The position numbers and the translations under genes were made by a program. The notes below the pieces were generated by a model, which was not told the origin of the DNA, ran no database searches, and saw only the letters and a list, made by a program, of their open reading frames with translations. From contig NZ_PQWO01000009.1 in assembly GCF_003231495.1 (NCBI RefSeq), positions 150,001-182,000 on the forward strand: a DNA stretch of 32,000 bases. Reading direction: 5' to 3'. This document shows, one piece after another, positions 1 to 29,894 of the stretch. The DNA is from Acaryochloris thomasi RCC1774 (GTDB lineage: Bacteria; Cyanobacteriota; Cyanobacteriia; Thermosynechococcales; Thermosynechococcaceae). Position 1 is the stretch's first letter. Every line of letters begins with the position of its first letter.

Positions 1-2468
1 CCTTGTTCACTGGGTGCCTTTTCAATATCCAGCAGCCGATAGTCTATGAACGGATAGTCAGCAAACTTCTCTTCTGCCTTGGCGGTGAATAAAAAGGAGA
101 CATCGGTGAAGGTATATTCAGTCCTGTAGCCGGGAAGCTGGGGCAAAACGTAGGCTGTTGTCCCGCCGGTACCTGCCCCAATTTCTAGAATTCGAATGGT
201 GCGATCTGTAGGGAGATCTTGGATGGCGGTTGCGATCGCATCGACAACCCACTGATTCGCCACCTGAGCCGCCGGAGAATCTTGATACAGCGCCTCAACA
301 TCGGCAACCGATCCGTCAGGGAACAATAGATTGAGCGGATCTTGGCCCTGCAAAACCGACGCTAATCCCTGTCCACATCGCCCCAACAAACTGATCTCAG
401 CCTGACAAGCCGGATAATGAGTTTGAAGACCTTGAAGACGCTGGGCTGGCGCTTCAAGGGTGGGCACCTTCTTGATCTGCCATTGGTTTGCCCCTTGAGC
501 AATGAGAATATCTTGCTCCGTCAAAACCTCAATCAGGCGATGCAGGAGCCGGTGATGCTGGGGCTGGATCTGCTGCCGTAGGGCAGCAAAAGGAAACGGC
601 TGTCCAGGCTGCAAGTTCAGATCCATATCCCAAAAAGCCCAGAGAATAAAATCTCGACTCAAGGTATTGAGCTGGGGCAATAGATCTCGATAGACATCTA
701 GCTTTTCTATACGAGTCTGCTGACGCACTTGATTAGCAATTTGGGACACAGAATCAAAGGTTAGAGTCGTATCCTGTAGTTCCGGCAAAGAGCAAGGACG
801 CCACTCCACTTGATAGAACCAGTCTGCAATCTGGGAGCAAGGGATACTCATCGGCTGCAGCCGAATGCCCTGAAGCGTCATTTTGACGGTGCCGTCAGCG
901 TCTAGAACCCGCACGTCCCCTGTCAGTTCGTCGGCCTGAGAGGTGAGAACTGCATGGCTATAAAGTGGGCCGTCAAGCGCCTCTAGAATGGTGAGTTCAC
1001 CGAGACCAATGGGTAAATAACTAACGGTGTCGGCTTCGGGTAGCGTTGCCCAAAGAACCTGTAGACAGGCATCTAACAGCGCGGGATGAGTACTGTAGTC
1101 GTCGGCATTGAGATGAGCGGGGAGCTTGATCGTTGCGATCGCTTCTCCTTCTGTTCGCCAAAGCTGCTCAATCCCCTGAAAGCTTGAATCTAGCTCAACC
1201 CCACGCGCTTTTAAGGTTTGGTAGAACGCCTTGTTTGCGATCGCATCACAGCGTCCTTGAATAGCGGCAATCGTGTTCCTTTTTAGATCTTGAACATCCT
1301 GAGCCGGGTCTTCTGAATCTGCCGCCATCTCTGGTAAGTGAACCGGAATGCTAACAGAGGCTTCAGTCAGTTCTTTACAGGCCGCGCGCAGCCGATTGAG
1401 ATGGGGAAGGGTTTGCAGAATTAAATCTGGATGCGGCCCAAAATCAAGGAGGCAGGCGATTTCGTTAACGCCGATATGATGAAGCTGCTCCACGAGGCTC
1501 TGACAGCTCTCAGAAGTGCCCAGCAAGGCTCTGCCCTCGCTATAGAATTTCTCGAAAATCCGATCCGTCATCTGATCAAGATCGGTCTCAGAAAGAGAGC
1601 CCAGATCGACAGACTGTCCTCGGCTGTAGCTCAACCCCTGCAGCAGCGGCAGATTGGCTTTCAGATAGCTGCAGTAGGGATGCCGCACTTCTTCCCGCAC
1701 TGTAGTCAAGTCATGGCCCATGTAGGTGTGCAGCGTCACCGTTACCTTGCCAGGGCAATGACCATATTCCACACTCGTTTGACGATACAGCGCAATATTC
1801 TGCGCTAGCGTCGCTAAATCTTGATCAAAGAGATGCGTGAGTAAATTTGCACCTAACTCCCCTGCTTTAGCAAAAGTTTTTGGGTTGCTAGCCGCCGTCA
1901 CCCATAGCGGGAGCTGCTTCTGTACCGGTGTCGGATAGACTCTAATCTCACGGAACTGACCATCACCACCCTGCACCGAAATAGAGTCGCCTCGCCAGAG
2001 CTTCTGGACAGTCTGAATCCCTTCTTCCATGACCTGCCACCGCTGATCGTAGCGCTCAGGGAAGAAGGCAAAATCTCCCGGATTCCAGCCCGAGGCAAAA
2101 GAAAGGCCCACGCGACCATCGGAGAGGTTATCCACCATCGCCCATTCCTCTGCCACTCGGATTGGGTCGTGCAAAGGCAGGACGACACTCCCGGCCTGCA
2201 GGCGAATATTCTGGGTTTCGCGGGCCAGCGCCGCCTGTAAGACCACAGGATTAGGATACAAACAGCCCAAGGGCGTGAAATGCCGTTCAGGAATCCAGAT
2301 GCTAGAGAAGCCATTTTGATCGGCAAACTTGGCGCTTTCGATGACGAGGCGATAGCGATCTTGCTCTAAGTTATCTTCACCACTGGCAAAGAACATCAGA
2401 CCAAACTGCATTCCCGTCTGAGCCATCTGAGCCGTTGCAAGGCTGGGAGTCTGTAGTGCACTCGTCAC
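1..2468 (-). CDS. Type I PKS subunit, truncated by the window edge. It carries a luciferase-like FMN monooxygenase (LLM) domain, the C-terminal half of a PKS dehydratase double-hotdog, and a SAM C-methyltransferase domain. The C-terminus lies beyond position 1.
   Basis: This ORF is absent from the ORF track because it has no stop inside the window. My own minus-strand translation from 2468/2426 down to position 1 is stop-free. It reads MAQTGMQFGLMFFASGEDNLEQDRYRLVIESAKFADQNGFSSIWIPERHF...AGSVVLPLHDPIRVAEEWAMVDNLSDGRVGLSFASGWNPGDF (LLM, MupA/Atu3671-like). It continues with AFYQTLKARGVELDSSFQGIEQLW and YSTHPALLDACLQ (DH motifs 3 and 4), then RILEIGAGTGGTT (MT motif I). The GTG at 2468 overlaps the upstream stop as GTGA and has AAGGA 7 nt upstream. 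ATG 2426 is the alternative start. Confidence 0.85.
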   Translation of the reverse strand, partial: MTSALQTPSLATAQMAQTGMQFGLMFFASGEDNLEQDRYRLVIESAKFADQNGFSSIWIPERHFTPLGCLYPNPVVLQAALARETQNIRLQAGSVVLPLHDPIRVAEEWAMVDNLSDGRVGLSFASGWNPGDFAFFPERYDQRWQVMEEGIQTVQKLWRGDSISVQGGDGQFREIRVYPTPVQKQLPLWVTAASNPKTFAKAGELGANLLTHLFDQDLATLAQNIALYRQTSVEYGHCPGKVTVTLHTYMGHDLTTVREEVRHPYCSYLKANLPLLQGLSYSRGQSVDLGSLSETDLDQMTDRIFEKFYSEGRALLGTSESCQSLVEQLHHIGVNEIACLLDFGPHPDLILQTLPHLNRLRAACKELTEASVSIPVHLPEMAADSEDPAQDVQDLKRNTIAAIQGRCDAIANKAFYQTLKARGVELDSSFQGIEQLWRTEGEAIATIKLPAHLNADDYSTHPALLDACLQVLWATLPEADTVSYLPIGLGELTILEALDGPLYSHAVLTSQADELTGDVRVLDADGTVKMTLQGIRLQPMSIPCSQIADWFYQVEWRPCSLPELQDTTLTFDSVSQIANQVRQQTRIEKLDVYRDLLPQLNTLSRDFILWAFWDMDLNLQPGQPFPFAALRQQIQPQHHRLLHRLIEVLTEQDILIAQGANQWQIKKVPTLEAPAQRLQGLQTHYPACQAEISLLGRCGQGLASVLQGQDPLNLLFPDGSVADVEALYQDSPAAQVANQWVVDAIATAIQDLPTDRTIRILEIGAGTGGTTAYVLPQLPGYRTEYTFTDVSFLFTAKAEEKFADYPFIDYRLLDIEKAPSEQ

Positions 2469-5400
2469 GCTGCGATCCTTTCCCGACTGGGCTGAAGGAC
2501 GATCGCAGAGGCGTGCAGCGTCCAAGGGGCTGTTGCAGATTGCCGACTATGAACCTGAAAACAGGCGGAGGGTTTGGATGCCGCCAACGACACCTGGACT
2601 GTTTTTGGCTGGCCGGGAGTCAGAAAAAGCGGGATATGTAGCTTGAGCTGCTGCATAGGATATTGCCCTTGTCCCCAAGCCGTTTGAGCTGCAGCCATCA
2701 CCATTTCTAAATAAGCTCCCATAAATAGAACCGGTGCTCCTCCCACACGATGCTCATTCAGGTAAGGCATTGTTTCTGGATCGAGTGCAACCTCCCAAAG
2801 CCAGTCCGTTGCTCGATGGGCAGGTGACGCTAACCGATGACCCAAAAGGGGATGATCGGCTTGTTCGTCAACCAGCCTCAGCGAAGGTTCTGTCGTCGGC
2901 AACCAATACCGCTGATGCTGAAATGGATAGGCCGGGAGAGCAATCCGCTGCCGAAGATAGTCCTGATCGAAGCCTTGCCAGTCCACTTCAAAGCCAAACT
3001 CGTACAGCCGCCCCAGACTTTTTAAGAGGCAGGTCCAGTCATCCTGTTTGGGTCGTAGGCTCGGTAGCCACTGGTGAGATGATTTGCCTAGGCACTGTTG
3101 ACCGAGGCTTAGCAAGGTTGGCTGAGGGCCAATCTCTAAGAAAAATTCACATCCCTGATCTGCCAGTGCTTTTATCCCTGCGGCAAACTGTACGGGCTGT
3201 CGAACGTGCTGCACCCAATAATCGGCAGTAGCAATCTCAGGGGGGGCCAGGTCTCCGGTCAGGTTACTGATTAGCTTGATCTGGGGCTGTTGAAAGCTGA
3301 CCGATTCAGCAATCTGTCGAAACTCATCTAAGATTGGCTCCATCAGCGGCGAATGGAATGCATGGGATACCGTTAGCACCTTGAGCGATATTCCTTGAGC
3401 CATTAGCTCAGCAGAAATCTTGCGGACCTCTGAACGCTGCCCAGATATCACAACGTTTTGGGGGCCATTGATGACGGCGATGCTGACGTTTTGATACGCC
3501 GCTACTAGCGGCTCTACTTGTTTAAGGGCAGCCCTAACTGCGACCATTTCACCCTCGGCGGGTAGAGCCTGCATGAGCCGACCTCGGGCTGCAATTAGCT
3601 TTAACCCGTCTTCAAGACTAAAGACACCGGCAATGCAGGCTGCAACATATTCACCAACGCTGTGCCCTAAGAGTGCGTCTGGCTCGATTCCCCAAGACTG
3701 CCATAGTTTTGCGAGGGCATATCCTAGGGCAAAGAGGGCAGGTTGAGTGTGAGCAGTTTCGTCAATGAGTGATGTCGTACTGATAGCTGGATAGAGAACA
3801 TCTAGCAATGAAGGCTCTAATTGCAGAATCTCTGCACAGTCATTGAGTGCCTGCCGGAAGGTGGGTTGAGTGTCGTAAAGCTGTCGCCCCATGCCCACAT
3901 ACTGAGATCCCTGCCCGGTAAACAGAAAGCCGATGGTTTTAGATTGTGTTTGAGGATGCTTTTTGTAACCCTGAGAAATTAAGGTTTGGAGCTGCTCTTT
4001 GAGGTGCTGGGTGGAGTGGGATGCGATCGCAACTCCAAACCCAAGCGAAAAACGTCCTGTATTAGATGAATAGCAAAGATCTGCAAGGTTCACGGTGGCC
4101 GCGACCTCCTGCACATACAGTTCACACAGTGCCTGCAGCGCTGCGGGAGTCTGAGCCGATAACGCCAATAAATGCTGCGGCCTCTCGTTCGGGACTGGAG
4201 CTTTAAAAGTTTGGATCGGGGCTTCCGCAATAATGGCGTGGGCATTGGTACCGCCGAAGCCAAAGGCACTGACGCCTGCTAAACGCCTTTGATCAGAAGC
4301 GGGCCAGGGTTGGGGTTGGGATGCGATCGCAAACCCTGAACCCTCCAGTTCAATATAGGGATTCAGTTTCTGACAGTTCAGATGTGCCGGAATAGAGCCA
4401 TGCTGTAGAGCCAACACAACCTTCATTAATCCGGCGATACCCGCAGCCGACTCTAAGTGACCGATATTTGTTTTCACCGACCCAAGCCAGCAGGTCTGTT
4501 CACGACCCTGCCCTAAAACCTTTTGCAAAGAGGCCACTTCAATCGGATCTCCTAATGGCGTCCCCGTGCCGTGGGTTTCGACATATTGAATCTTTGCCGG
4601 AGCCACACCCGCTTGATCTAACGCCTGAGCAATCACCCGTTGCTGTGCTAAACCATTGGGGGCTGTAATTCCATTACTGCGGCCATCTTGATTGATGGCC
4701 GATCCCATGATTATCGCCAGAATCGGATCGCCATCTCGTTGGGCATCTGCCAATCGCTTGAGAACAATCAGTCCACAGCCTTCTCCTCTGACATAGCCAT
4801 CGGCATCGGCATCAAAGGTTTTACAGCGACCATCGGCGGCCATCATTTGAGCCTCCGTGAAGGCTGTCGTTAGTTCTGAAGAGAGAATGGCATTGACGCC
4901 ACCTGCGATCGCAAGTTCGCAGTCCCCCACCCGCAAACTCTGACAGGCTTGATGAACTGCTACGAGCGCAGAAGAACAGGCAGTATCAACAGCAATACTC
5001 GGCCCCTGCAAATTGAACTGATAAGAGAGTCGATTCGCCGCCATACTCAAGGCATTACCCGTGCTGGCGTAGGTGTCCCAGTGTTGTTGAGATTGGGCTA
5101 GTTTGCGACCATAGTCACTGTTGCTGATGCCAACAAACACACCCGTCTGACTATCTTTGATATTTTGTGCCTGTCCCGATCGCTCAAAGGCAGACCATGC
5201 GACCTCAAGCAGTAATCGGTGCTGGGGATCAATCTTTTCGGCTTCCCGTGGAGTAATCCCGAACAGGTCAGCATCAAACTGATCGATGCCCTCGATAAAC
5301 CCGCCCGGATATTGGGACGTGGGGCTGATGGGTTGGATGCGATCGCAAGGCACTTCCCCAATTGCATCAGCGCCATCTTGCAGAAGCTGCCAAAACGCTT

Positions 5401-7564
5401 CTGGACTCTCTGCACCCGGAAATCGACAGTCCATCCCAATAATGGCAATACCGTCTGTCGTCGTTTGAGCTGTTGAAGGCGCAGTTGTCGTAGTCTCGTT
5501 CGCTAAATACTGAGCAAGCTGACGAATGGTGGGGTAGTCGTAGAGCAAGATGGGAGACAGGCGACGCTGGAGCCAGGTTTCCAATTTACCCGAAAGGCTA
5601 ATCGCCGTTGCAGAATTTAAGCCTAGGCTGACAAATTCCACCTGCGGATCAATCTCCGCAAAAGGAACGCTGACTTTCAGGGCAATTTGGTTCCTTAGCC
5701 AAGTTTCAATTGCCTCGCTCGTTACACGAGCAGCCTGAGCCTCCTGAATTTTGGAGTGAGGAGAGAGAAAACTGCTCTTCGCCTTCCCAGACTGCCCATT
5801 GGGTTGTAAATCAGTGGGTTGTAGATGATTGTCCGCAGTCCATTCGCTCAGTACAGTCAATGAGTTGTTCAACAAGCCTTGCTTACAAGCCTGCCGCTGA
5901 ATCTTTCCGCTTGATGTTTTAGGAATGCTCCCCGGCTTCAGCAGATAGAGACCGTGAATCTGTAGCTCGTGGTGTTGAGAAACGGCCTTTTGAACAGTTA
6001 TGATGATGTCTTCGATATTGAGCCTGCGGCGATGGCTACGCTCAACTTCTTGGACAATAACCAGCCGTTCTTCCCCTGCAACAAACTGAGAAACGGCAGC
6101 GCCACAGCCTGATTTCAAGGCTGGATGGCACTGAGCAACTGTGGCCTCAATATCTTGGGGATAGTGGTTCTGCCCTCGAAAAATCAATAAGTCTTTCCGG
6201 CGTCCGGTGATATAGAGTTCACCATCACTGAGAAAGCCCAGATCGCCCGTTCTCAAGAAAGGGCCATCGCCATCAAGATCGGCGCAGAAGGCCGCTTTCG
6301 TCAGCTCCGGCTGATTCCAGTAGCCCTTAGCCACGCTGGGACCAGACACCCAAATCTCTCCTACTTGTTCTGAGGAACAAGGCGTGAGCTGGTCAGGATC
6401 AACAATCTGGACGCTTTGATCCAGTGCTGAATATCCACAGCTCACAAGGGTTTGGGCATCCTCCTCAGTTGCATCAACTTCAAGCACTTGATTGAGTCTT
6501 AGGGCAGTGCCTTGAACAGTTTTGCAAACGAGTTGTTCTGATGCCCGCTTTCCCGTCGTCATCAGGGTTGTTTCAGCCATGCCGTAGCAGGGTAAAAAGG
6601 CTTCCCGTCGGAATCCGCATTCAGCAAAGGCTGTGGCAAAGTTTGAGAGCGTTCCCGCTCGAATGGGTTCGGCTCCTGTGAAGGCGACCCGCCAACTGCT
6701 CAGGTCTAACTCGGCTTTATCCTGGGGTGTCGCTCGCTCGACGCAGAGGTCGTAGGCAAAATTGGGAGCGCCGCTGGTGGTTACCTGATATCGAGAAATA
6801 GCCTGTAGCCACCGAAGGGGCTTCTGCAAGAACTGAGCTGGGTCCATTAGCGTAACGGAACCGCCGCAGTACAAAGGCTGAAGAATCCCCCCAATCAACC
6901 CCATATCATGGTAGGGCGGCAGCCAGGAAACCACGCTCATCTGAGACGTGTGATTGAACTGCCGAGCAATCCAGGCTAGATTGTGCAGCAAGTTCTTATG
7001 GGTGACCATCACCCCTTTGGGGGCTGCGGTTGAACCTGATGTGTACTGGAGAAAGGCAACATCGTCCCCAGCCATCGGCTCAATATGCACGGGTTCTTGT
7101 GGCTTCTGCGCATCATCAGTGACGATCCACTTTAGCTTTTGCAGCCAGGGTAAATCGGGCAACTGTTGCAGACGGTTTAAGGTGGCAGTGGTGGTGAGCG
7201 CCAGCGTGGGTTGAGCGTCGTCAACGATGGACTTTAAACGCTCTAGACTGCGGTTAGGTCGTGGTGGGTAGATAGGTGTTGCGATCGCACCTGCATACAA
7301 GCAACCAAAAAACGCTGCCACGTAAGACAGCCCTGCCGGAAACACCAGCAACACCCGCTCCCTCTTGGCCTCAAACTGCTGGAGCTGCTGGCAAATCCAT
7401 CGAGCCTGCTGGTCGAGACTCTCGTTAGAAAGCTGAACCGCATCTGCCTCACCATCGGTCAGAAAGGTATAGGTCTGATGCTGAGGCTTCGACTGCGCCC
7501 TCCAAATCAGTAGCTCCACAAGTGTCTGAATATCTTTTCTTTCTGACGATTCAGCTTCGAGCAT
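2465..7564 (-). CDS. Type I PKS loading and first extension module: fatty acyl-AMP ligase (FAAL) - ACP - KS - AT (malonyl-type) - N-terminal half of DH
   Basis: This is the 1719-aa track ORF. FAAL/adenylation motif: FLQYTSGSTAAPKGVMVTHKNLL. Carrier motif: LGLNSATAISL. KS motifs: DTACSSALVAVHQA, ETHGTGTPLGDPIE, KTNIGHLESAAG. AT motifs: GFLFTGQGSQYVGMG, GHSVGEYVAACIAG, SHAFHS. DH motif 1 (HPLLGHRLASP) is followed by only about 125 aa before the stop. The track start is a GTG at 7624. ATG 7564 (MLEAESSERKDIQTLVELL...) fits FAAL N-termini better. Confidence 0.95.
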   Translation of the reverse strand: MLEAESSERKDIQTLVELLIWRAQSKPQHQTYTFLTDGEADAVQLSNESLDQQARWICQQLQQFEAKRERVLLVFPAGLSYVAAFFGCLYAGAIATPIYPPRPNRSLERLKSIVDDAQPTLALTTTATLNRLQQLPDLPWLQKLKWIVTDDAQKPQEPVHIEPMAGDDVAFLQYTSGSTAAPKGVMVTHKNLLHNLAWIARQFNHTSQMSVVSWLPPYHDMGLIGGILQPLYCGGSVTLMDPAQFLQKPLRWLQAISRYQVTTSGAPNFAYDLCVERATPQDKAELDLSSWRVAFTGAEPIRAGTLSNFATAFAECGFRREAFLPCYGMAETTLMTTGKRASEQLVCKTVQGTALRLNQVLEVDATEEDAQTLVSCGYSALDQSVQIVDPDQLTPCSSEQVGEIWVSGPSVAKGYWNQPELTKAAFCADLDGDGPFLRTGDLGFLSDGELYITGRRKDLLIFRGQNHYPQDIEATVAQCHPALKSGCGAAVSQFVAGEERLVIVQEVERSHRRRLNIEDIIITVQKAVSQHHELQIHGLYLLKPGSIPKTSSGKIQRQACKQGLLNNSLTVLSEWTADNHLQPTDLQPNGQSGKAKSSFLSPHSKIQEAQAARVTSEAIETWLRNQIALKVSVPFAEIDPQVEFVSLGLNSATAISLSGKLETWLQRRLSPILLYDYPTIRQLAQYLANETTTTAPSTAQTTTDGIAIIGMDCRFPGAESPEAFWQLLQDGADAIGEVPCDRIQPISPTSQYPGGFIEGIDQFDADLFGITPREAEKIDPQHRLLLEVAWSAFERSGQAQNIKDSQTGVFVGISNSDYGRKLAQSQQHWDTYASTGNALSMAANRLSYQFNLQGPSIAVDTACSSALVAVHQACQSLRVGDCELAIAGGVNAILSSELTTAFTEAQMMAADGRCKTFDADADGYVRGEGCGLIVLKRLADAQRDGDPILAIIMGSAINQDGRSNGITAPNGLAQQRVIAQALDQAGVAPAKIQYVETHGTGTPLGDPIEVASLQKVLGQGREQTCWLGSVKTNIGHLESAAGIAGLMKVVLALQHGSIPAHLNCQKLNPYIELEGSGFAIASQPQPWPASDQRRLAGVSAFGFGGTNAHAIIAEAPIQTFKAPVPNERPQHLLALSAQTPAALQALCELYVQEVAATVNLADLCYSSNTGRFSLGFGVAIASHSTQHLKEQLQTLISQGYKKHPQTQSKTIGFLFTGQGSQYVGMGRQLYDTQPTFRQALNDCAEILQLEPSLLDVLYPAISTTSLIDETAHTQPALFALGYALAKLWQSWGIEPDALLGHSVGEYVAACIAGVFSLEDGLKLIAARGRLMQALPAEGEMVAVRAALKQVEPLVAAYQNVSIAVINGPQNVVISGQRSEVRKISAELMAQGISLKVLTVSHAFHSPLMEPILDEFRQIAESVSFQQPQIKLISNLTGDLAPPEIATADYWVQHVRQPVQFAAGIKALADQGCEFFLEIGPQPTLLSLGQQCLGKSSHQWLPSLRPKQDDWTCLLKSLGRLYEFGFEVDWQGFDQDYLRQRIALPAYPFQHQRYWLPTTEPSLRLVDEQADHPLLGHRLASPAHRATDWLWEVALDPETMPYLNEHRVGGAPVLFMGAYLEMVMAAAQTAWGQGQYPMQQLKLHIPLFLTPGQPKTVQVSLAASKPSACFQVHSRQSATAPWTLHASAIVLQPSRERIAA

Positions 7565-7729
7565 GTTCAAAATTGGCAAAAAATAGAGATTGGGCCAGCA
7601 AAAGCGGGTGACGTGGTTTACCACGCTTCAGAAATTCCGATTAGAAAAAGACAGAATATGCGATGAAAACTGAGAGCCACCCTCCTAGACTTCAATCTGG
7701 ACATGGGGCGACGCTCTATTTGATCTGTT

Positions 7730-7777
7730 TTGAGAATATATCTCATTTAAATTAATTGCAACTACTTCTCAATAAAT
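7730..7777. promoter_or_regulatory. Candidate Fur-type iron boxes in the divergent PKS / receptor promoter region
   Basis: TTGAGAAT at 7730-7737 is the reverse complement of ATTCTCAA. It sits inside the dyad TGAGA-ATATA-TCTCA (7731-7745). CTTCTCAATAAAT lies at 7765-7777. From memory, the Anabaena FurA consensus contains ATTCTCAATAAAT. The region is AT-rich and lies between divergent iron-type genes. Confidence 0.45.
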
Positions 7778-8076: not shown

Positions 8077-10701
8077 GTGCAAAATTGGTTATTTCCTTGT
8101 GGGGCTTTAGGGGTTGCGGCTGTTCTCATCGCCCAGCCAGCTCAGGCGCAGACGGTTTCCATTAGTGCCGTTGAGCTACTGCAGACCGAAACAGGTCTCA
8201 GTATTGTGCTGACGGTGCCAGATGGAGAAAATCTTGAGGTTTCTACATCTAGTACTGAATCAACTTTCACGGCTGATATCAGCAACGCTCAGTTGAATCT
8301 TCCAGGTGGAGAAATCTTTGAGCAGGCAAACCCAGCACCCGGCATTCGCGCAGTTTCTGTGATCCCCCTAGATGTCAGTCGCGTTCGCGTCACGGTTGTC
8401 GGTGAGACCGACGGTTTGACCAGTGTGGTGCAGCAAGAGGCGCAGCAATTGGTCTTCCAGGTTGAGGCCCCCACTGTCTTAGAGACTCCTGCAACGGAAA
8501 CGCCTGATGATGTCCCCGTAACTGAAGACTCCCCAGAAGAACCGGGGACCGAGGAACCCAGTGCTGACGTCCCGTTCGAAGAGGATGATGATCTCGAGAT
8601 TATCGTCACAGCGACCCGCACCGAAGAAGAAACGGAAGACGTGCCTCGATCCGTCACTGTCGTCAAACGCGAAGACATTGAGCGAGAAGGTCTTGCAGGG
8701 GGCGATCTCACTAGCACACTCGGTAAGCTAGTTCCTGGCTTAGGACCGCCGACTAGCGATGGTCGGACTCGAGTCTTTGATTTGCGGGGTCGTCCCGCTC
8801 AGATTTTAATTGATGGTATTCCTCAGACGGGTAATGCCTCCTTCGGGACAGAGCTATCGGCCATCGATCCCTCATCGATTGAGCGTGTTGAGGTCGTTCG
8901 TGGACCCACCGCTATCTTCGGAGATGGCGCAACAGGGGGTGTGATCAACATCATCACCCGCACACCCACCGAAGAGGGCCAGCAAGTGCGTCTGGGTCTC
9001 ACCCTTCGACCCGACTTTGATAATCTCTCAGAGGGTGGCGTGGGTTTCAAAGTCGATACTGGCATCACGGGCAAGGAAGGAAAGTTTGATTTTCTTTTAA
9101 ATGCGGCCTTTGATGTCAATGACCCCTCATTCGATGCCGAGGGCGATCGAATTCCTCCCACAGATGGTTTGAATAATGACAATCGCGCCATCAACGTTTT
9201 AGCGAAGGCTGGTTTCGATATTTCTGAAAACCAGCGGGTTCAGTTTACCTATAGCTTTTTCAATAATGTCTTCGCGACTGACTTTACTGCTGATACAGCC
9301 AGCATCATCCCTCCAGGCAATCAAGAAGTAGATGCCCTAGAGGTTGGTGAGATTCGATTTGGTGATAACGAGCCTTCTCAAACGGTGCAAAATTTCAACA
9401 TCACCTACCGCCACCAAGACGTTTTTGATTCCGAAGTCAATGTGCAGGCTTTCTTGAGAACGACGGACCTGACCCAGAATATAACTGATATTCGGCAGAA
9501 TCCGGCTCTGGCCCCCTTGTTATTCAACCCCTTTTTGCCCCTTGTGTCTCAGACACAGCTAGACGCTTTAGAGCTTGGGGGACGTCTGCAGGTGGATACA
9601 CCTATCACAGAGCGGTTGAGCCTTTTGTGGGGCGCTGATGTTTCCTATGAAGAGAATGAGCAGCTCTTTCTCGACATTGATCCAGACGCCTTTGATAATG
9701 ACCAAGAAGCCAATGTCTTTCGAGAATTCAATCAGTCTCCGCTGTACAGACTGCGAAATGCGGGTACTTTTGCTCAACTCCAGTGGAACGCAACCGACAA
9801 GCTTGCATTCAGTGGTGGCGCTCGGTATGAGAATATTCGTCTTTCCGTTGATGACTATACAGTCAGTCCCTTTGCAGGGGGGTTCTTTGGCTTCTTCCCC
9901 CCGGCTCAAGTAGAAGGGGGATCGGTAACGGTAGATGATTTTGTGTTTAATGCCGGTATTGTCTACAAAGCCACCGATCAGATTAGTCTGTACGGTAATT
10001 TTGCCCAGGGTTTCTCCATACCGAGTGTCGGAATTGCTTTAGGTCTGGTTGCGGAGGGCAGCACCCTGGAGGACAACGCTCAGCTAGAACCCCAGAAAGT
10101 CAACAACTACGAATTGGGCGTACGCGGTAACTTTGACGATTTAACGCTCAGCCTTGCGGGTTTCTTAAGTACATCTTCCCTCGGCTCAACAATCCAGGTG
10201 GATCAGACCGGTATTACAAGTCAGGTAAGAGCGCCTCAGCGTAATTATGGGGTTGAGTTTACGGCTGATTGGCAGCCGGTCGATCGCTGGCGATTGGGTA
10301 CCATTCTTTCCTGGAATGAAGGTGAAAACAACCCTGAAGATGATGGTGATGACAGCTTTGTTCCTCTCAGTTCCATTGATATTCAGCCCTTCAAGGCAAC
10401 AGTATATGTCGAAAATGAAACACTACCGGGTTGGCGTACTCGTCTCCAGGCTGTGTTTGTTGGAGGACGAGATCGCGCCTTTGATGCGGGTGTTGATCAG
10501 TTTCAAGTGACTGGCTATACCGTCGTTGACCTCTTTAGCACGGTCAAGCTTGGCCCCGGCAAACTTCAGTTCGGAATTAAGAACCTATTAGATAACCAGT
10601 TTTTGCCGGTTAGCTCTCAAGAGCGAACCGGCATTCAAGAAATCCGTCGCTTCCCTGGCGAAGGTCGAACCTACAGTATTCGCTATAGCTTTGAGTTTTA
10701 G
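8077..10701 (+). CDS. TonB-dependent outer-membrane receptor (ferric-siderophore type) with an AMIN-like N-terminal extension
   Basis: 874 aa. The signal peptide ends in AQPAQA. It is followed by an AMIN-like domain and an acidic Pro/Glu linker. A TonB-box-like DLEIIVTATR is present, as is the plug motif RVEVVRGPTAIFGDGATGGVINIIT. A long barrel ends in YSIRYSFEF (aromatic terminus). GAGGAG lies 5 nt upstream of the GTG start. Confidence 0.9.
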   Translation: MQNWLFPCGALGVAAVLIAQPAQAQTVSISAVELLQTETGLSIVLTVPDGENLEVSTSSTESTFTADISNAQLNLPGGEIFEQANPAPGIRAVSVIPLDVSRVRVTVVGETDGLTSVVQQEAQQLVFQVEAPTVLETPATETPDDVPVTEDSPEEPGTEEPSADVPFEEDDDLEIIVTATRTEEETEDVPRSVTVVKREDIEREGLAGGDLTSTLGKLVPGLGPPTSDGRTRVFDLRGRPAQILIDGIPQTGNASFGTELSAIDPSSIERVEVVRGPTAIFGDGATGGVINIITRTPTEEGQQVRLGLTLRPDFDNLSEGGVGFKVDTGITGKEGKFDFLLNAAFDVNDPSFDAEGDRIPPTDGLNNDNRAINVLAKAGFDISENQRVQFTYSFFNNVFATDFTADTASIIPPGNQEVDALEVGEIRFGDNEPSQTVQNFNITYRHQDVFDSEVNVQAFLRTTDLTQNITDIRQNPALAPLLFNPFLPLVSQTQLDALELGGRLQVDTPITERLSLLWGADVSYEENEQLFLDIDPDAFDNDQEANVFREFNQSPLYRLRNAGTFAQLQWNATDKLAFSGGARYENIRLSVDDYTVSPFAGGFFGFFPPAQVEGGSVTVDDFVFNAGIVYKATDQISLYGNFAQGFSIPSVGIALGLVAEGSTLEDNAQLEPQKVNNYELGVRGNFDDLTLSLAGFLSTSSLGSTIQVDQTGITSQVRAPQRNYGVEFTADWQPVDRWRLGTILSWNEGENNPEDDGDDSFVPLSSIDIQPFKATVYVENETLPGWRTRLQAVFVGGRDRAFDAGVDQFQVTGYTVVDLFSTVKLGPGKLQFGIKNLLDNQFLPVSSQERTGIQEIRRFPGEGRTYSIRYSFEF

Positions 10702-10704
10702 TCA

Positions 10705-11706
10705 ATGAATACCTATAACGCCCTGAGTTCAAATGCCGTAAATCTTTATAGACATCTAATTTGGTTCGTTGTGGGTCTACTCTTATTTATTCTGCTTTCA
10801 AGCTGCACAAAAGATCCCCTGCCAGATCTAGCGGCTCAGCGTTCCCCACTGCCTCAAAACAGTTCTCGTACCATTGAGCATGCAATGGGAACGAGCCAAG
10901 TTCCCCAAAAGCCCCAGCGTGTCGTGGTAGTAGATACGGCTGCTCTAGATGCATCTCTAGCACTAGACGTAAAGCCTGTGGGATCAGTAATTTATGAGCA
11001 ATTCCCTAATTATTTAGGGTCGCAGACCGAGGGGATTGAGTCTGTAGGAGACGGAAATCAACCTAACCTAGAAACAATCCTCCGCTTAAACCCCGACTTG
11101 ATCTTAGGGAGCAAGGTTGGCTCTAAGCGACTTTACAAGAATCTGAATCGAATTGCCCCGACTGTTTTTTCTGAGGGCAGTGGTAGAGCAGGCGATTGGC
11201 AAGAGAACTTCATCCTTTTTGCCCAGGCTTTAAATAAAGAACAGCAAGGTTGGCAACTTCTACAGGACTATAAAGATAAAGCTGCAGCTCTCAATACCCA
11301 ATCAAAAGATGTCAGTGAGACGGTCGTTTCTATTGTTGCAACGGCCCAAGGGAAAGTGGGCGTTTTCAGCGTCAAAAGCTTTGCCGGCTCCATCCTGCAA
11401 GATATAGGGGTTGATCGACCAAAAGCGCAGCAGAAACCCAAAAGACATGCAGCTTTTGTTTCTCGAGAGGATTTAGAGAGTCTTGATGGCGATATCATTT
11501 TTCTCGTCCGAGACCAGCGCTCTGATACCAGCTTAGATCGGCAAGCCTTTGTCAGTGATCCTATCTGGGCAAAGCTGAAGGCTGTGAAACGCGATCGCAT
11601 CTATGAAGTCAGCAATCAGGTTTGGTCTGCGGGTAGAAATATCCTCGCCGCCCAAGAGATCCTAAAGGATCTTGAGACAGCTCTTTCTGCTGAGAATCAG
11701 TCCTGA
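10705..11706 (+). CDS. Periplasmic iron-siderophore (FhuD/FecB-type, Peripla_BP_2) substrate-binding lipoprotein
   Basis: 333 aa with a lipobox (LLSSC). PQRVVVVDTAALDASLALDVKPVG and LNPDLILG are patterns typical of class III binding proteins. The gene starts 3 nt after the receptor stop. Confidence 0.85.
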   Translation: MNTYNALSSNAVNLYRHLIWFVVGLLLFILLSSCTKDPLPDLAAQRSPLPQNSSRTIEHAMGTSQVPQKPQRVVVVDTAALDASLALDVKPVGSVIYEQFPNYLGSQTEGIESVGDGNQPNLETILRLNPDLILGSKVGSKRLYKNLNRIAPTVFSEGSGRAGDWQENFILFAQALNKEQQGWQLLQDYKDKAAALNTQSKDVSETVVSIVATAQGKVGVFSVKSFAGSILQDIGVDRPKAQQKPKRHAAFVSREDLESLDGDIIFLVRDQRSDTSLDRQAFVSDPIWAKLKAVKRDRIYEVSNQVWSAGRNILAAQEILKDLETALSAENQS

Positions 11707-11708
11707 AG

Positions 11709-13019
11709 ATGTCGGCAGTTCCTGGCGTTAAAGTCTACGGTACGCTTTGGGCCGGTCAATGTGCTTCCCTGCTTGGCTCTAACATGACGAACTTTGCCGT
11801 CACGCTCTGGGCCTGGGAGCAGACAGGGCAGGCCACACCACTATCTTTACTATTTTTCTTTGCCCAAGTCGCCAAAATTGCAGCGGCCACTTTCTCTGGT
11901 GTGCTGGTAGATCGCTATAGCCGCCAGAAATTGATGATCGTGGGCAACGCAATCGCAGGACTATCCTCTATCTGCATTCTTGTGCTGCTGCAGACGCATC
12001 AACTTGCCCTTTGGCATCTCTACTTTTCCTGCGCTATCAACGGCTTGTTTAGCTATATTCAAAGCCTTGCACTCTCGACCTCGGTGTCGCTGCTATTACC
12101 TGAGCATCACTATGGACGGGCCGGTGCAATGGATTCACTCAAAGGTGCAGGTGCCTTTGTCTTTGCTCCCGCCTTCGCCGGGGCGCTCTACCCATTCATT
12201 GGCTTACTGGGCATTTTAGGGATTGATCTAGCAACCTTCGGTTTTGCGGCTGTTTCCCTATTTGTACTCCATATTCCCCAGCCTTTGCCTATCAGCGGCC
12301 CAGAAACGATTCGCCAAAAGTTAACCTTTGGCTTTCGCTATATTGTTAAGCAACCAGGTCTCAAAGCCATTCTCATATTTTTATTTAGCGCTAACTTTTT
12401 TACGAGCGCCAGTATTGCGATCTTACCCGCCGTGATTTTAGCTCGCAGCGAGAATGATATTGGTCTATTAGCAACGTTCCAGTCAGCATTGGGCTGTGGA
12501 GGTGTCTTCGGGGCATTACTACTGGCAATCTTTGGTGTTTTTACCCCACGTATTCATGGATTATTTTTAGGTGTTGCTTTACCTCAATTAGGCTGGCTCA
12601 TTTTGAGCGTTACGCAAGCTAAAGGGCTGTGGATAGTTGCGGCTTTCTTAAGTGCTTGCTTCATACCGCTCGTTGGCGCATCAAACCAAGCAATCTGGTT
12701 AGCGAAGGTGAAGCCAGCCCTACAAGGTAGGGTTTTTGCAACTCGTTATCTACTAGCTCAAGCATCAACACCTTTGGGCGCAGTAATCTCAGGTCCACTT
12801 GCGGATCGTATTTTTGAGCCTGCAATGCAGAACCAAGGAATTCTAGCAAAGAGTTTTGTTGGGTCTTGGTTAGGAACGGGACAAGGCATGGGACTCACCT
12901 TAGAGCTAATGTGTTTTGCGACCTGCAACTTAGTTATTGGCCTAAGTGGCTATGGAATACGCAGACTTCGATATGCTGAGGTCGTATTGCAAGTTTCTAA
13001 GCCTTCGCTAAGAGAGTGA
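11709..13019 (+). CDS. MFS transporter, EntS/MFS_3-like (putative siderophore exporter)
   Basis: 436 aa. The protein is hydrophobic throughout, with roughly 12 TM segments by eye. The VDRYSRQKLMIVGN loop is typical of the EntS-like MFS_3 family. The ATG lies 2 nt after the binding-protein stop. Confidence 0.85.
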   Translation: MSAVPGVKVYGTLWAGQCASLLGSNMTNFAVTLWAWEQTGQATPLSLLFFFAQVAKIAAATFSGVLVDRYSRQKLMIVGNAIAGLSSICILVLLQTHQLALWHLYFSCAINGLFSYIQSLALSTSVSLLLPEHHYGRAGAMDSLKGAGAFVFAPAFAGALYPFIGLLGILGIDLATFGFAAVSLFVLHIPQPLPISGPETIRQKLTFGFRYIVKQPGLKAILIFLFSANFFTSASIAILPAVILARSENDIGLLATFQSALGCGGVFGALLLAIFGVFTPRIHGLFLGVALPQLGWLILSVTQAKGLWIVAAFLSACFIPLVGASNQAIWLAKVKPALQGRVFATRYLLAQASTPLGAVISGPLADRIFEPAMQNQGILAKSFVGSWLGTGQGMGLTLELMCFATCNLVIGLSGYGIRRLRYAEVVLQVSKPSLRE

Positions 13020-13084: not shown

Positions 13085-13600
13085 TCAATCTAAGTAACCC
13101 ATTAAGTTTCCACTTGAAAGAGAGCTATTATCTGCAATCGGACGATTTCCCGGCAAAGATGCAGAAGGAGTGAGTGACGAATTTAAACGAACAACAGGGC
13201 GATTGCCAAACATTGCAACAATGTCCAAATCACTTTGAAAAACGGGACGATGTTGAGGTAAATGATCAAAGCTTGTCACCTGCCGGGTTCCGACAAGAAT
13301 AGGGCGACTACTGGGGAGTGTCTCAGACGGAACTAGAGTTGGATTGCCCCCATGAACAGGACGATGATCCGGCAGTTCGGATGGTGAGTACACAACCATC
13401 GCTTCGCCAGAATCCTCTGCAGCAGTCTTGGTCAAACGAGGTTCGCTAAATCCCCACCCTTTCTCAGGAAGCGGTGGAAATGGCTCGCCTTTCACGACAG
13501 TAACTTCGTATCCTTTGTCCCCACCTCTGGGACCGACAACTGGATATAGTCCACTATTCTCAACAATTTCCCCAGGACTAAAAAGTTTTTTACTCATCAC
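13085..13600 (-). CDS. Hypothetical protein: YjzC-like N-terminal domain followed by five degenerate RP[VI]-core repeats
   Basis: 171 aa. The N-terminus GEIVENSGLYPVVGPRGGDKGYEVTVVKGEPFPPLP resembles the YjzC family (from memory). Repeats follow at spacings of about 14-23 aa: LPDHRPV, LPSSRPI, LPQHRPV, FGNRPV, LPGNRPI. Confidence 0.6.
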   Translation of the reverse strand: MMSKKLFSPGEIVENSGLYPVVGPRGGDKGYEVTVVKGEPFPPLPEKGWGFSEPRLTKTAAEDSGEAMVVYSPSELPDHRPVHGGNPTLVPSETLPSSRPILVGTRQVTSFDHLPQHRPVFQSDLDIVAMFGNRPVVRLNSSLTPSASLPGNRPIADNSSLSSGNLMGYLD

Positions 13601-13955: not shown

Positions 13956-14417
13956 CTATCGAGGCATACGGTAAAACAGACTCGTCACTTTCCCTAAAAT
14001 GTTGTGAGCAGGAACGTTACCGAAAGAGCGGCTATCAGTGCTAGCGTCCAGATTATCGCCGAGGAGAACATAGGTATTAGGGGAGGCGGCGGTCGATAAC
14101 CGACAGACCAATCCAGGAGTCAATAAATCCTGCGAAGAACTCAAAGGTACGCTGACGGTCATCGCAGCCACCCGCTTCACAATTTTCAACCCAGGCCGCT
14201 CCGGATGTTCCGCTACAACTAAATCTCCCACAATAGGGAGACTCGACCGATAAGCGTGGTGGTTAACCAAAACCTCATCTCCTGGATAGAGTGTCGGCAT
14301 CATCGATAGCCCAACCACCCGGAAACGAAAGCGCCGCCGAAACAACCAAAGCCCAAACTCGAAGAGATTGGGCTTCAATACAGCAGCCAAAGGCCGATCT
14401 AGCTGGCCTTGACCCAT
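13956..14417 (-). CDS. sodX: Nickel-SOD maturation protease (S26 signal-peptidase family)
   Basis: 153 aa. S26 motifs are GLSMMPTL (Ser) and LKIVKRV (Lys), plus LLGDNLDASTDSRSFG. The gene lies immediately downstream of sodN and overlaps it by 19 nt. Confidence 0.85.
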   Translation of the reverse strand: MGQGQLDRPLAAVLKPNLFEFGLWLFRRRFRFRVVGLSMMPTLYPGDEVLVNHHAYRSSLPIVGDLVVAEHPERPGLKIVKRVAAMTVSVPLSSSQDLLTPGLVCRLSTAASPNTYVLLGDNLDASTDSRSFGNVPAHNILGKVTSLFYRMPR

Positions 14418-14869
14418 TGGACATCCCGGTCCTTAGTGGCCCAGAAAATGCCGTGAATTTGCTCCACTGCCGCCATCAGTTCAGTCGCATGCTCAACACT
14501 AACTTCTACCTTGCAGGCAGAACAGAGCTTCGCAGCTTTCCAGAAAATATCATGCAGATCAGGATACTTCTCTAAATGAACAGGCTTGAAGTAGTCTGTC
14601 CAAAGAATGAGAATGTCTTCTTTGGTCTTTTGGGCCTGCTCTTCCTTAATTGCGATGTAGCGAGACAGCGTATTGTTGTAAGCCACCATCGACGCTGCAT
14701 CTTGTCCAGCAGGCTGCAGGTCTACAATCTTTTTCGTCATCGAAAGTACAGCCTCAGCCGTAATGCGGGCTGCAGCCGGATCGTAGACACCACAGGGGCC
14801 ATCACAGTGGGCGTGAACCTCTGGAGCCGGGAAGCAAGCTTGAATTTTGGCTGTAATTGCGTTGAGCAT
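14399..14869 (-). CDS. sodN: Nickel-containing superoxide dismutase precursor
   Basis: The Ni-hook motif HCDGPCGVYDP follows a short leader (MLNAITAKIQACFPAPEVHA | HCDGPCG...). A start at ATG 14869 gives 156 aa, the usual SodN size. The track ORF extends upstream to 14959. Confidence 0.93.
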   Translation of the reverse strand: MLNAITAKIQACFPAPEVHAHCDGPCGVYDPAAARITAEAVLSMTKKIVDLQPAGQDAASMVAYNNTLSRYIAIKEEQAQKTKEDILILWTDYFKPVHLEKYPDLHDIFWKAAKLCSACKVEVSVEHATELMAAVEQIHGIFWATKDRDVQWVKAS

Positions 14870-15083
14870 AGCGTATCGTTCCTCGAATGGATCAATTTGG
14901 GGTATACCCGCATGGTATCTGTCTTTAGCGATCATGGAACAAATTTGACCCGCAATCAAGAAACTTAAGAATCAGTTTGAACTCTGCTATGCCTAGCTTC
15001 TGGCACAAACACGTCGAGGGCTCTTGCATAAGTCTGCGGTCCCAGGGCGATAGATCTAGTAAATCAACGTAATCAAAAGATTT

Positions 15084-15161: not shown

Positions 15162-17009
15162 ATGTGGCCCAAGCCAAATAAAGATCAGCATCGGCACGAT
15201 GACTCAAATCTACAGTTTGATCGCAGAACGGAAGCCAAGCTACGGCGCAAGAAGGCTGCAGTCTTAGCCGCCAAGCGTCCCCATGCAACGCATCAAAGTA
15301 ATGGGGAAGAAATCTTGGCCGGACAGCCCGGTAATTTCCGAAAAGGACTAGAGCATAGTGAAGATGGTTTTCTGGTAGATCCCAGAGACTATCAGACCTA
15401 TCGCAGCGCCATTCGCAGTGGCTTACCTGACGAGCTTGACACGGTGCCGGTCCCGCCCACAATGGGGCAAGGGCGTCGCAAATGGGAAAGTCCTGGCACA
15501 GGATTTGTCTTTGACCTCGAAGGCCCAGATGCTCAGGCGATCACAATGCCGCCAGCCCCAAAGCTTGATAGTGCAGAACTAGCAGCAGAACTGGCTGAAG
15601 TTTATGCCATGGCGAAGCTACGAGATACTCGGTTTTCTAGTTTTGGTGCAGGCGGCACCGTCTCTGAATGCATTACCGTGCTGAATAAATTCAGTTGGTT
15701 TGGCACTGGCTTTCAAAAGCGGCCAACTTGCCAGTACGACGTTGAGCAGATTTTCGGTGAACAAGCAGGGCGATTTCTCGGACGTGAGCGAGCATCAGTT
15801 ACACCAGGGAATCTATTTCGAGGCGTCACAGAGGGGGACGAGAACGGTCCCTTCATTTCTCAATTTCTGTTAATTGGAAATCCCAGCCGTGGTGCTGACG
15901 CTGAGGTGGCCAACCCACTACCAGAGCCGCGGTTCGAGTGGCAAGAAAATGCAGGGAAGATTACCTATGGCGCCCATAGCATTGATCAGCGTGTCCGCAT
16001 CGCCACAGAGAACATTGACTTCATGACTGACTTCTGCGATTGGAAAACAGTCCAAAATGGGGTTAACGTCAATCGCCAATACCGCTTTGACTATAATCGA
16101 ACAGACTATACCCCCATCGCTAGGACGGGCGACCCAAATGAGCCCAATGGTCCCGCCTATCGCTTTATTTCAACTCCTCGGGACTTAGCCACCTACGTTC
16201 ATTTCGACCAACTTTACCAGGCCTATCTCAATGCCTGTATTTTGATGCTGGAGCGGGGTGTGCCGACAGACCCAGGTTTTAATCGATTCAATAATGGATT
16301 TAATCAACAAGGCTTTGCTCAGTTTGGTGGCCCACATATTCTCTCGCTGGTCACTGAAGTCGCAACAAGAGCGCTAAAAGCCGTTCGTTTTCAGAAATTT
16401 AATATCCACAATCGCACAAGACCAGAGGCGCTGGGCGGTTTGATGGATCGATTACGAGAGAACGCTAACGATTCGAGACTAGAACCTGTGCGTCAACTCT
16501 GGACAACGCTACAAGATACTGGCGTTTTACCCATGAAAAACCATTTGTTGCCAATGGCTTTTCCTGAAGGATCCCCCATGCATCCTTCCTATGGAGCCGG
16601 TCATGCCACTGTAGCAGGGGCCTGTGTGACAATACTGAAGGCTTTCTTTAAACACGACTACAATCTTGTCGAGCCAGGTCGCAAGGATGACAATGGCAAA
16701 CCCTTCCAGGATCAAGCCTATGAGGCTAACCCTAGTACGGGTGGGCGATCGCTATGCCCAGTCCATCTCAGCAAGCCTCTAACCGTAGAAGGGGAACTTA
16801 ATAAACTGGCTTCAAATATCTCCATTGGTAGAAATATGGCTGGGGTTCACTATTTCTCGGACTATATTGAGTCTCTGCGCTTAGGTGAGCTGATTGCCCT
16901 TGGCATTTTGGAAGAACAGGCGCTGACGTACAACAGCCACCAGTTTCCATTTTCAATGACCGTCCCTCTTTATGATGGCGGGACCGTCGTGATTGGAACG
17001 ATTGAGTAA
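15162..17009 (+). CDS. Vanadium-dependent haloperoxidase-like protein (PAP2 / acid-phosphatase superfamily)
   Basis: 615 aa. K412-x7-R420-P (KFNIHNRTRP) has the same spacing as the algal bromoperoxidase vanadate site. HPSYGAGHA spans residues 474-482. GRNMAGVHYFSD spans residues 556-567. Together these form the PAP2/VHPO tripartite signature. Confidence 0.8.
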   Translation: MWPKPNKDQHRHDDSNLQFDRRTEAKLRRKKAAVLAAKRPHATHQSNGEEILAGQPGNFRKGLEHSEDGFLVDPRDYQTYRSAIRSGLPDELDTVPVPPTMGQGRRKWESPGTGFVFDLEGPDAQAITMPPAPKLDSAELAAELAEVYAMAKLRDTRFSSFGAGGTVSECITVLNKFSWFGTGFQKRPTCQYDVEQIFGEQAGRFLGRERASVTPGNLFRGVTEGDENGPFISQFLLIGNPSRGADAEVANPLPEPRFEWQENAGKITYGAHSIDQRVRIATENIDFMTDFCDWKTVQNGVNVNRQYRFDYNRTDYTPIARTGDPNEPNGPAYRFISTPRDLATYVHFDQLYQAYLNACILMLERGVPTDPGFNRFNNGFNQQGFAQFGGPHILSLVTEVATRALKAVRFQKFNIHNRTRPEALGGLMDRLRENANDSRLEPVRQLWTTLQDTGVLPMKNHLLPMAFPEGSPMHPSYGAGHATVAGACVTILKAFFKHDYNLVEPGRKDDNGKPFQDQAYEANPSTGGRSLCPVHLSKPLTVEGELNKLASNISIGRNMAGVHYFSDYIESLRLGELIALGILEEQALTYNSHQFPFSMTVPLYDGGTVVIGTIE

Positions 17010-18493: not shown

Positions 18494-18565
18494 GCCTGCA
18501 GTTCAATTCACTTTTCTCCTTGGTCAATGGCAGTTTTGGCCAGGAGTCGACTTCGTCCAAGATAA

Positions 18566-19972: not shown

Positions 19973-19994
19973 TGTTCGAGCCTTATCTACGCTA

Positions 19995-20025
19995 AACGGC
20001 GTCGCCCTAGCAGAGCAACGCCGTT
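19995..20025. terminator. Hairpin between convergent genes (possible bidirectional terminator)
   Basis: AACGGCGT (19995-20002) pairs with ACGCCGTT (20018-20025). The stem is 8 bp and the loop 15 nt. There is no strong U-tract. Confidence 0.35.
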
Positions 20026-20054
20026 ATTAAACGATCAGGAACTCAATCTTAGGC

Positions 20055-21204: not shown

Positions 21205-21215
21205 AGGAAGTGAGC

Positions 21216-22688: not shown

Positions 22689-22696
22689 CAATTTGT

Positions 22697-29890: not shown

Positions 29891-29894
29891 AGCG

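Follow-up and report, generated by a model that had tools for sequence, protein, structure and literature searches.

The closest described system to the locus reported here is the biosynthetic cluster of cyanochelin B, whose N-terminal unit is a threo-2,3-dihydroxy-2-methylacyl chain carried on a methylthiazoline, with the beta-hydroxyl group retained (PMC12628792). The legend of the cluster figure in that work lists ketosynthase (KS), KS0, acyltransferase (AT), flavin monooxygenase (Ox), C-methyltransferase (cMT) and ketoreductase (KR) domains, and no dehydratase (DH) is named in that legend. The present analysis concerns a 32,000-nucleotide stretch of the cyanobacterium Acaryochloris thomasi RCC1774 (contig NZ_PQWO01000009.1, positions 150,001 to 182,000 of the forward strand), referred to in its entirety as the window. 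Two consecutive polyketide synthase (PKS) genes on its minus strand, encoding what are called here protein 1 and protein 2, divide one DH double hotdog between two polypeptides, the N-terminal hotdog (DH_N) ending the first and the C-terminal hotdog (DH_C) lying in the second, with a luciferase-like monooxygenase (LLM) at the break.

MupA, the namesake of this LLM family, hydroxylates in vitro the C-alpha of a beta-ketoacyl chain bound to an acyl carrier protein (ACP), is inactive on beta-hydroxyacyl-ACP and requires an external flavin reductase (PMC10952193). The alpha-hydroxylation bimodules of MupA and OocM in trans-AT PKSs have in common with the LLM of the window the TIGR04020 family and, most likely, the logic of beta-ketoacyl-ACP alpha-hydroxylation. 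However, MupA and OocM are free-standing and act in trans, whereas the LLM of the window is covalently part of a cis-AT module and lies within a DH fold. As in these bimodules, a KS0 follows the hydroxylating module in the cyanochelin cluster, according to the figure legend mentioned above (PMC10952193; PMC12628792). The same LLM type is present in the Ox domain of PuwE (Protein Data Bank, PDB, entry 6KET; 47-48% identity) and in the AmT-Ox pair of puwainaphycin, microginin and ralsolamycin-type lines. PuwE-type Ox domains occur in cyanobacterial lipopeptide lines primed by a fatty acyl-AMP ligase (FAAL), where they have been proposed to install a 2-hydroxyl (PMC4219810). Unlike in the window, no DH halves have been described around Ox in the PuwE and AmT-Ox lines.

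With regard to the DH itself, the curacin domains CurF, CurJ and CurK and other canonical PKS DHs consist of a whole double hotdog with a catalytic His and the Asp of a DxxxQ motif. The pieces encoded in the window also contain the Asp and the His, the latter in a HxxxGxxxxP motif that has F in place of P. Canonical DHs are formed by one chain with a short inter-hotdog loop, whereas the loop of the window comprises ~400 amino acids (aa) of LLM and linkers, together with a chain break. A double hotdog made of two single-hotdog polypeptides is known from the heterodimeric (3R)-hydroxyacyl-ACP dehydratases HadAB and HadBC of mycobacteria. These differ from the window pair in their unrelated sequence context, in being true dehydratases, in having no inserted oxygenase and in not belonging to a megasynthase.

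A dehydratase fold shared by two polypeptides

The features of the pair and of the divergent genes beside it are listed below, with coordinates of the window and the evidence in brackets.

2465..7564, minus strand: protein 1, FAAL-ACP-KS-AT-DH (N-terminal hotdog) (Pfam and identity to orthologues)
5852..7498, minus strand: fatty acyl-AMP ligase domain (AMP-binding and DIP2-like subdomain), aa 43-591 (Pfam PF00501, PF23024)
5504..5701, minus strand: loading ACP, aa 642-707 (Pfam PF00550)
4373..5452, minus strand: ketosynthase, aa 725-1084 (Pfam PF00109, PF02801)
3032..3928, minus strand: acyltransferase, aa 1233-1531 (Pfam PF00698)
2468..2854, minus strand: DH N-terminal hotdog with HPLLG and EHRVGGAPVLF, last domain of the polypeptide (PF21089, CurF/AlnB mapping, predicted local distance difference test score, pLDDT, 82-97)
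2465..2480, minus strand: junction, with AAGGA at 2480-2476, a 7-nt spacer and GTG 2468-2466 overlapping the stop TGA 2467-2465 (sequence)
1386..2405, minus strand: luciferase-like FMN-dependent monooxygenase (MupA/Atu3671 family), protein 2 aa 22-361 (TIGR04020, 6KET match)
849..1262, minus strand: DH C-terminal hotdog, protein 2 aa 403-540, with GVELDSSF (degenerate YGP) and HPALLDACLQ (PF14765, CurK/CurF mapping)
3..707, minus strand: C-methyltransferase region (HTH_51 and the start of Methyltransf domains), truncated by the window edge (Pfam)
8077..13019, plus strand: siderophore transport cassette, CctA/B/C-like, divergent from the PKS pair (Pfam, CctA identity)

The open reading frame (ORF) of protein 1, as called mechanically, spans 2465-7624 on the minus strand and reaches a GTG at 7624; the ATG at 7564 appears to be the likely start, because the N-terminus read from there aligns within two residues of that of the orthologue BAU16016. 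The Pfam matches follow the order AMP-binding/FAAL, PP-binding, KS, AT and PKS_DH_N, the last of which (PF21089) is matched over its whole profile (positions 1-103 of 103, aa 1591-1694). The polypeptide terminates 25 residues further on, at the TGA 2467-2465, and no Pfam model of a C-terminal DH (the C-half of PS-DH) matches protein 1.

This stop codon forms a 4-nt stop/start overlap (GTGA, 2465-2468) with the putative start of protein 2, GTG 2468. That start is not proven, since translation could also begin at an ATG located at aa 15 or aa 20, and the orthologue BAU16015 is annotated with the start 'MQFGL'. Translational coupling through the GTGA is plausible for the window pair; overlaps of this type are not conserved family-wide, and junctions elsewhere extend from 4-nt overlaps to 135-nt gaps. 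Read from GTG 2468, protein 2 leaves the window at position 3. Its LLM domain is matched by Bac_luciferase in Pfam (aa 20-335), by TIGR04020 at aa 22-361 over the whole model (1-341 of 341; 465.4 bits, cutoff 244.45) and by 6KET with E = 1.5e-113. In an AlphaFold model it adopts the TIM-barrel LLM fold with high pLDDT, and Foldseek aligns it with 6KET at a TM-score of 0.91-0.93 and the identity of 47-48% given above. Beyond the LLM, PS-DH (PF14765) is matched at profile positions 16-159 of 166 (aa 409-540), and the methyltransferase domains begin at ~aa 590.

The two DH pieces correspond to adjoining parts of single DH domains. Positions 824-1008 of the Pks2 model of NCBIfam are matched by the tail of protein 1, and positions 1012-1201 by the post-LLM segment of protein 2. 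The tail likewise maps to residues 4-134 of the CurF DH and 35-152 of the AlnB DH, and the post-LLM segment to residues 143-281 of the CurF DH and 149-287 of the CurK DH. This mapping places the LLM, like the chain break, exactly in the inter-hotdog loop, without missing DH residues. An earlier sequence-only reading of this DNA had proposed one DH double hotdog spread over two polypeptides, with an LLM at the break, and a GTGA overlap with AAGGA 7 nt upstream; the overlap is there in the sequence, and the division of the fold is upheld by the profile matches, the mapping and the structural model described below. A complete DH is found in neither protein by profile search, PF21089 occurring in protein 1 and PF14765 in protein 2, and the segment after the LLM is a DH C-terminal hotdog by both PF14765 and the CurF/CurK alignment.

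The DH motifs quoted in that reading are all present, with the correction that the catalytic His is held by EHRVGGAPVLF, a HxxxGxxxxP motif in which P is replaced by F, rather than by HPLLG. GYxYGPxF is replaced by GVELDSSF, so that YGP becomes LDS, and the Asp motif HPALLDACLQ, of the LPxxLDxxxQ/H type, is intact.

The packing of the halves was modelled with AlphaFold (AF2) by joining the DH_N tail of the window in silico to its LLM-DH_C, using an alignment of 17 natural fusions. The mean pLDDT was 88.2, with low values only at the junction (residues 142-152) and in the linker from LLM to DH_C (residues 507-531). In a Foldseek search against the PDB, the whole DHs of CurF, CurK, CurJ and AlnB matched the joined model with TM-scores of 0.83-0.87 (target-normalised), in alignments spanning 671-680 query columns, that is, across the LLM. 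Since whole DH structures superpose across the LLM in this model, the hotdog halves are predicted to pack as one canonical double hotdog from which the LLM protrudes as an excursion. An earlier AlphaFold model of a natural fusion (P0177) was confident only for LLM and DH_C, and is uninformative on the packing of the hotdogs because AT and DH_N had no alignment depth.

A probable cyanochelin-type starter module

A query consisting of LLM-DH_C matches plasmid 2 of Leptolyngbya sp. NIES-3755 (AP017310.1) with 54% identity, and only two plasmid records carry LLM and DH_C. In NIES-3755, BAU16016 (1701 aa) is followed after a 12-nt gap by BAU16015 (1534 aa), with a TonB receptor gene divergent from them. 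Protein 1 is 55% identical to BAU16016 over 1725 aa and protein 2 is 52% identical to BAU16015, comparing full proteins. This locus is the published cyanochelin B cluster, with BAU16015 as CcsC, and its gene order, domain order, split into DH_N and LLM-DH_C, cMT after DH_C and divergent AMIN-TonB receptor are those of the window; the published head group also fits the domain prediction for the window. The junctions differ, with a 12-nt gap in the cyanochelin B cluster as opposed to the GTGA overlap. The statement of the sequence-only reading that it knew of no characterised module with this layout therefore falls, as the same two genes with the same split have a published product. Clusters of this type, their Ox domain and the chemistry of their product are already in the literature, and the locus is probably a further cyanochelin-like siderophore cluster.

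The closest genomic relative is found in an Acaryochloris metagenome-assembled genome (MAG; locus L005), with 75% identity over the LLM-DH_C query; when full proteins are compared, protein 1 is 63%, protein 2 72% and the receptor 65% identical to its counterpart there. It shares its synteny with the window and has an ATGA overlap at the equivalent junction. The remainder of its protein 2 comprises cMT-KR-ACP, and the ORF after it, of KS and non-ribosomal peptide synthetase (NRPS) type, is BAU16014-like, with 53% identity over about 2000 aa. The cassette divergent from the PKS pair of the window encodes an AMIN-Plug-barrel TonB-dependent receptor, 45% identical to BAU16017 (CctA), a Peripla_BP_2 periplasmic binding protein and a major facilitator superfamily (MFS) exporter, genes that match the CctA/B/C cassette described in bioRxiv 10.64898/2026.07.30.741596. 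FAAL, ACP, KS, AT, Ox and cMT, as expected of the starter module, all lie within the window; KR-ACP, off the window here, is present in the 72%-identical orthologue. It is probable that the window pair encodes the loading step and first extension module of a cyanochelin-type lipopeptide siderophore line, in which the hotdogs serve for docking and no net dehydration takes place.

The LLM of the window is most likely an alpha-hydroxylase, because the cyanochelin B product bears a 2,3-dihydroxy-2-methylacyl head; this head group and the membership in the MupA family favour the alpha-oxygenation of a fatty-acyl-primed chain that had been suggested from the sequence. The order of steps, deduced from MupA chemistry and the structure of cyanochelin B, would be the following. 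The FAAL would adenylate a fatty acid and load it onto the first ACP, after which KS and AT would extend it with malonate to a beta-ketoacyl thioester. The cMT would then methylate C-alpha, and the LLM would hydroxylate the C-alpha of the beta-keto intermediate with FMNH2 supplied by a reductase encoded elsewhere. A KR encoded beyond the window would subsequently reduce the beta-keto group, and the 2,3-dihydroxy-2-methylacyl chain would be handed to the NRPS. On the structural side, the inter-hotdog loop would carry the LLM, with the gene boundary at the N-terminal edge of the insert. The two hotdog halves would reassemble non-covalently, and the resulting double hotdog would tie the KS-AT of protein 1 to the LLM-cMT-KR-ACP of protein 2 and position the LLM.

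The role of the DH in such a module can be judged from the product and from its relatives, which were collected by a survey scan of one genome per GTDB species (79 loci with relatives). Cyanobacterial and Chloroflexota members have a degenerate YGP motif; those of Streptomyces and Corallococcus have an intact one. The catalytic His is absent from 8 of the 51 aligned related DH_N sequences, in which the fold is retained, namely those of the cMT-type relatives L007, L008 and L009 and of five other loci. The DH probably performs no net dehydration, because cyanochelin B keeps its beta-hydroxyl and because a C-alpha that bears OH as well as CH3 lacks the proton needed for elimination. The best reading of the DH appears to be that of a scaffold or docking device, its mainly structural role being suggested by the preserved fold, the degenerate YGP of the lineage and the loss of the His. 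A composite DH/oxygenase active site, as the sequence-only reading had envisaged, is less likely than a scaffold given the same two changes in the motifs, the retained beta-hydroxyl and the fact that MupA works without a DH.

Several points weigh against the reading as a cyanochelin-type module with a docking DH. Among aligned members, the His is retained in about 84% of the family and the Asp or Glu in about 95%, the window retaining both, which would seem to exceed what a pure scaffold needs, and the Streptomyces and Corallococcus members hold the full canonical motif set, including YGP. The joined model represents one artificial chain rather than a predicted heterodimer. No flavin reductase was found among the window ORFs scanned with Pfam. 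The product of the window locus would follow from its relatives, since the KR, ACP and NRPS lie off the window. Furthermore, the literature searched, which did not extend to the original 2021 cyanochelin report, contained no description of an LLM inside a DH or of a split PKS double hotdog, and the DH halves may have been described in that original work.

The alternative that fares best takes the split DH as catalytically engaged with the LLM, which we regard as unlikely. In one variant, attack on the flavin hydroperoxide could follow enolisation of the beta-ketoacyl-ACP by the His/Asp dyad. In another, successive action of the KR and the DH could yield a 2-enoyl intermediate, to be epoxidised by the LLM and later opened to the diol. 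In members devoid of cMT, a 2-oxoacyl product might arise through dehydration of the 2,3-diol by the DH. The kept His and Asp/Glu and the complete motifs of Streptomyces and Corallococcus speak for such engagement, as does the model, which is predicted to rebuild an intact double hotdog. In addition, LLM-DH_C-KR-ACP, of about 1150-1230 aa, is the commonest downstream architecture, so that a beta-hydroxy substrate would be available. These points are opposed by the beta-hydroxyl retained in cyanochelin B (PMC12628792), by the requirement of MupA for the beta-keto form, without any DH (PMC10952193), by the loss of the His in three cMT-type and five other loci, and by KR-less LLM-DH_C-ACP variants, which offer a DH nothing to dehydrate.

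It is considerably less probable still that the locus makes a compound of another class and that the transporter genes beside it are coincidental. All that follows the cMT lies off the window, and clusters of other types, for instance in Dolichospermum, Streptomyces and Burkholderia, also begin with this split module. Against this stand the synteny of the PKS pair with the divergent genes for the AMIN-TonB-dependent receptor, the binding protein and the MFS exporter in the window, the Acaryochloris MAG and NIES-3755, and the finding of the cMT-bearing subtype only among cyanobacterial relatives of the ccs genes.

An origin from such a module was also considered for DHABA, a residue of cyanochelins A and C, and rejected, its published origin being the reduction of beta-OH-Asp. 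With regard to the intergenic region between the divergent PKS and receptor genes, no E. coli-type Fur box was found in the window. A perfect inverted repeat, TGAGA-N5-TCTCA (~7733-7747), lies in an AT-rich stretch of this region and could be a candidate regulator site; GTTTTGAGA is found again about 50 nt downstream.

The gene boundary across bacteria

The series DH_N, LLM and DH_C, in which DH_N lies just ahead of the LLM, was counted in 52 loci, from the survey scan and four further loci. A stop codon separates DH_N from the LLM in 47 of them, with the same position of the break at the protein level, and the remaining five, three Acidobacteriota MAGs and two Bradyrhizobium genomes, are fused. 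These loci belong to eight phyla: Cyanobacteriota, Chloroflexota (Ktedonobacter, Dictyobacter), Pseudomonadota (Burkholderia, Bradyrhizobium, Halochromatium), Myxococcota, Acidobacteriota, Nitrospirota, Bacteroidota and Actinomycetota (Streptomyces). The nucleotide structure of the junction, classed in 51 of the loci, is a gap of 3-135 nt in 20, a 4-nt NTGA overlap in 13, a longer or ambiguous overlap in 11, a fusion in 5 and a 1-nt overlap in 2, and some of the gaps, which reach 135 nt, include in-frame stops. The break point is conserved in the protein but not in the DNA, which rules out an assembly frameshift.

The one-frame offset and 4-nt overlap of the ORFs and the existence of natural fusions might suggest one fused gene that is interrupted by a frameshift from assembly or sequencing, or by a pseudogenising mutation of recent date. 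This explanation is effectively refuted by the recurrence of the break in independent loci with differing junctions, by its presence in the characterised cyanochelin B producer and, as ATGA, in L005, and by the AAGGA 7 nt upstream of the GTG. The comparison of fused and split homologues thus bears out the earlier view that the break is no random frameshift, and supports a genuine, selected gene boundary.

The census was based on genomic loci because a homologue search with the 200-aa DH_N tail gave no match at E <= 1e-10. At the protein level, a profile search of 1.84 billion cluster representatives showed that most proteins with LLM and DH_C have the LLM starting from residues 1-22, while a minority carry it internally. 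Of the proteins collected, 180 have the LLM at their start together with a DH_C, and natural fusions of the form DH_N-LLM-DH_C number 17. The split layout is therefore widespread in bacteria, and the split form is the predominant one.

The domains around the split vary. Besides the KR-containing form, downstream proteins comprise the cMT-bearing type of the window, seen only among the cyanobacterial ccs relatives mentioned above, and the KR-less LLM-DH_C-ACP. The upstream protein is FAAL-ACP-KS-AT-DH_N in Streptomyces, Ktedonospora and the window, and in Dolichospermum a separate FAAL-ACP protein precedes KS-AT-DH_N. It is tentatively suggested, as a possibility that we hold with some doubt, that KS-AT-DH_N / LLM-DH_C-(cMT)-(KR)-ACP is a widespread module, present in eight phyla and split in about 90% of cases, in which the double hotdog has come to act as a non-covalent heterodimerisation device, linking both parts of the module and presenting the hydroxylase to the ACP, and in which the His/Asp dyad may aid enolisation or, in members without cMT, the conversion of the diol to a 2-oxoacyl group.

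Individual relatives show further variation. In Burkholderia sp. LMG 32019 (L033, 5601-13324), the upstream protein is FAAL-ACP-KS-DH_N with no AT detected, and this split module may be served by a trans-AT. Six proteins of about 1100 aa from cyanobacterial MAGs (P0261-P0265 and P0136) have the order LLM-DH_C-cMT-ACP, with no KR among the precomputed Pfam matches, and a variant of this kind would yield a 2-hydroxy-2-methyl-3-oxoacyl product. In Dolichospermum flos-aquae (L085, CP051206.1, 4534-23624), one cluster holds two LLM domains, the first in KS-AT-DH_N / LLM-DH_C-KR-ACP and the second in the next protein, a PuwE-like KS-AT-ACP-LLM-NRPS of 4225 aa; its product would be predicted to be a polyhydroxylated beta-amino acid. 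Hassallidins, which contain a 2,3-dihydroxy fatty acid, were considered as possible users of the split module; the Dolichospermum homologue lies in a different-looking cluster.

Neighbouring genes and significance of the split

Outside the PKS pair and its transport cassette, the window encodes several recognisable functions. At 13956-14959 on the minus strand, Pfam identifies two overlapping genes, one for a nickel superoxide dismutase (Sod_Ni) and one of the signal-peptidase-like type (Peptidase_S26), which look like a sodN/sodX maturation pair. Beside the siderophore transport cassette, at 17333-21120 on the plus strand, are genes for an imelysin (Peptidase_M75), a di-haem DHOR peroxidase and a PKHD/PiuC-type 2OG-Fe(II) oxygenase, a set that looks associated with iron uptake. 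These are followed on the same strand by a DUF1800 and DUF1501 gene pair (21210-23947) and by a gene for a 687-aa protein (24438-26501) with an unusual fusion of a PTS_EIIC membrane domain to a C-terminal EAL domain (c-di-GMP phosphodiesterase). At 26535-29926 on the minus strand lies a four-gene phosphate-type ABC (ATP-binding cassette) transporter, consisting of an ATPase, two permeases and a PBP_like_2 binding protein. No Pfam match was obtained for a 615-aa ORF at 15162-17009 on the plus strand or for the smaller ORFs at 13085-13600 and 23967-24422 on the minus strand.

The family to which the window pair belongs presents a catalytic fold that has been cut at a domain-internal loop, with an oxygenase inserted, and most lineages maintain this cut as the boundary between two genes. 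The genomic signature of a protein ending in PKS_DH_N, followed by one starting with TIGR04020 and then PS-DH, could serve to predict head groups that are alpha-hydroxylated (2,3-dihydroxyacyl). Should the hotdog halves indeed form a docking interface, they would represent a natural split-domain connector, with a possible use in the engineering of split PKS modules and in the insertion of tailoring domains.

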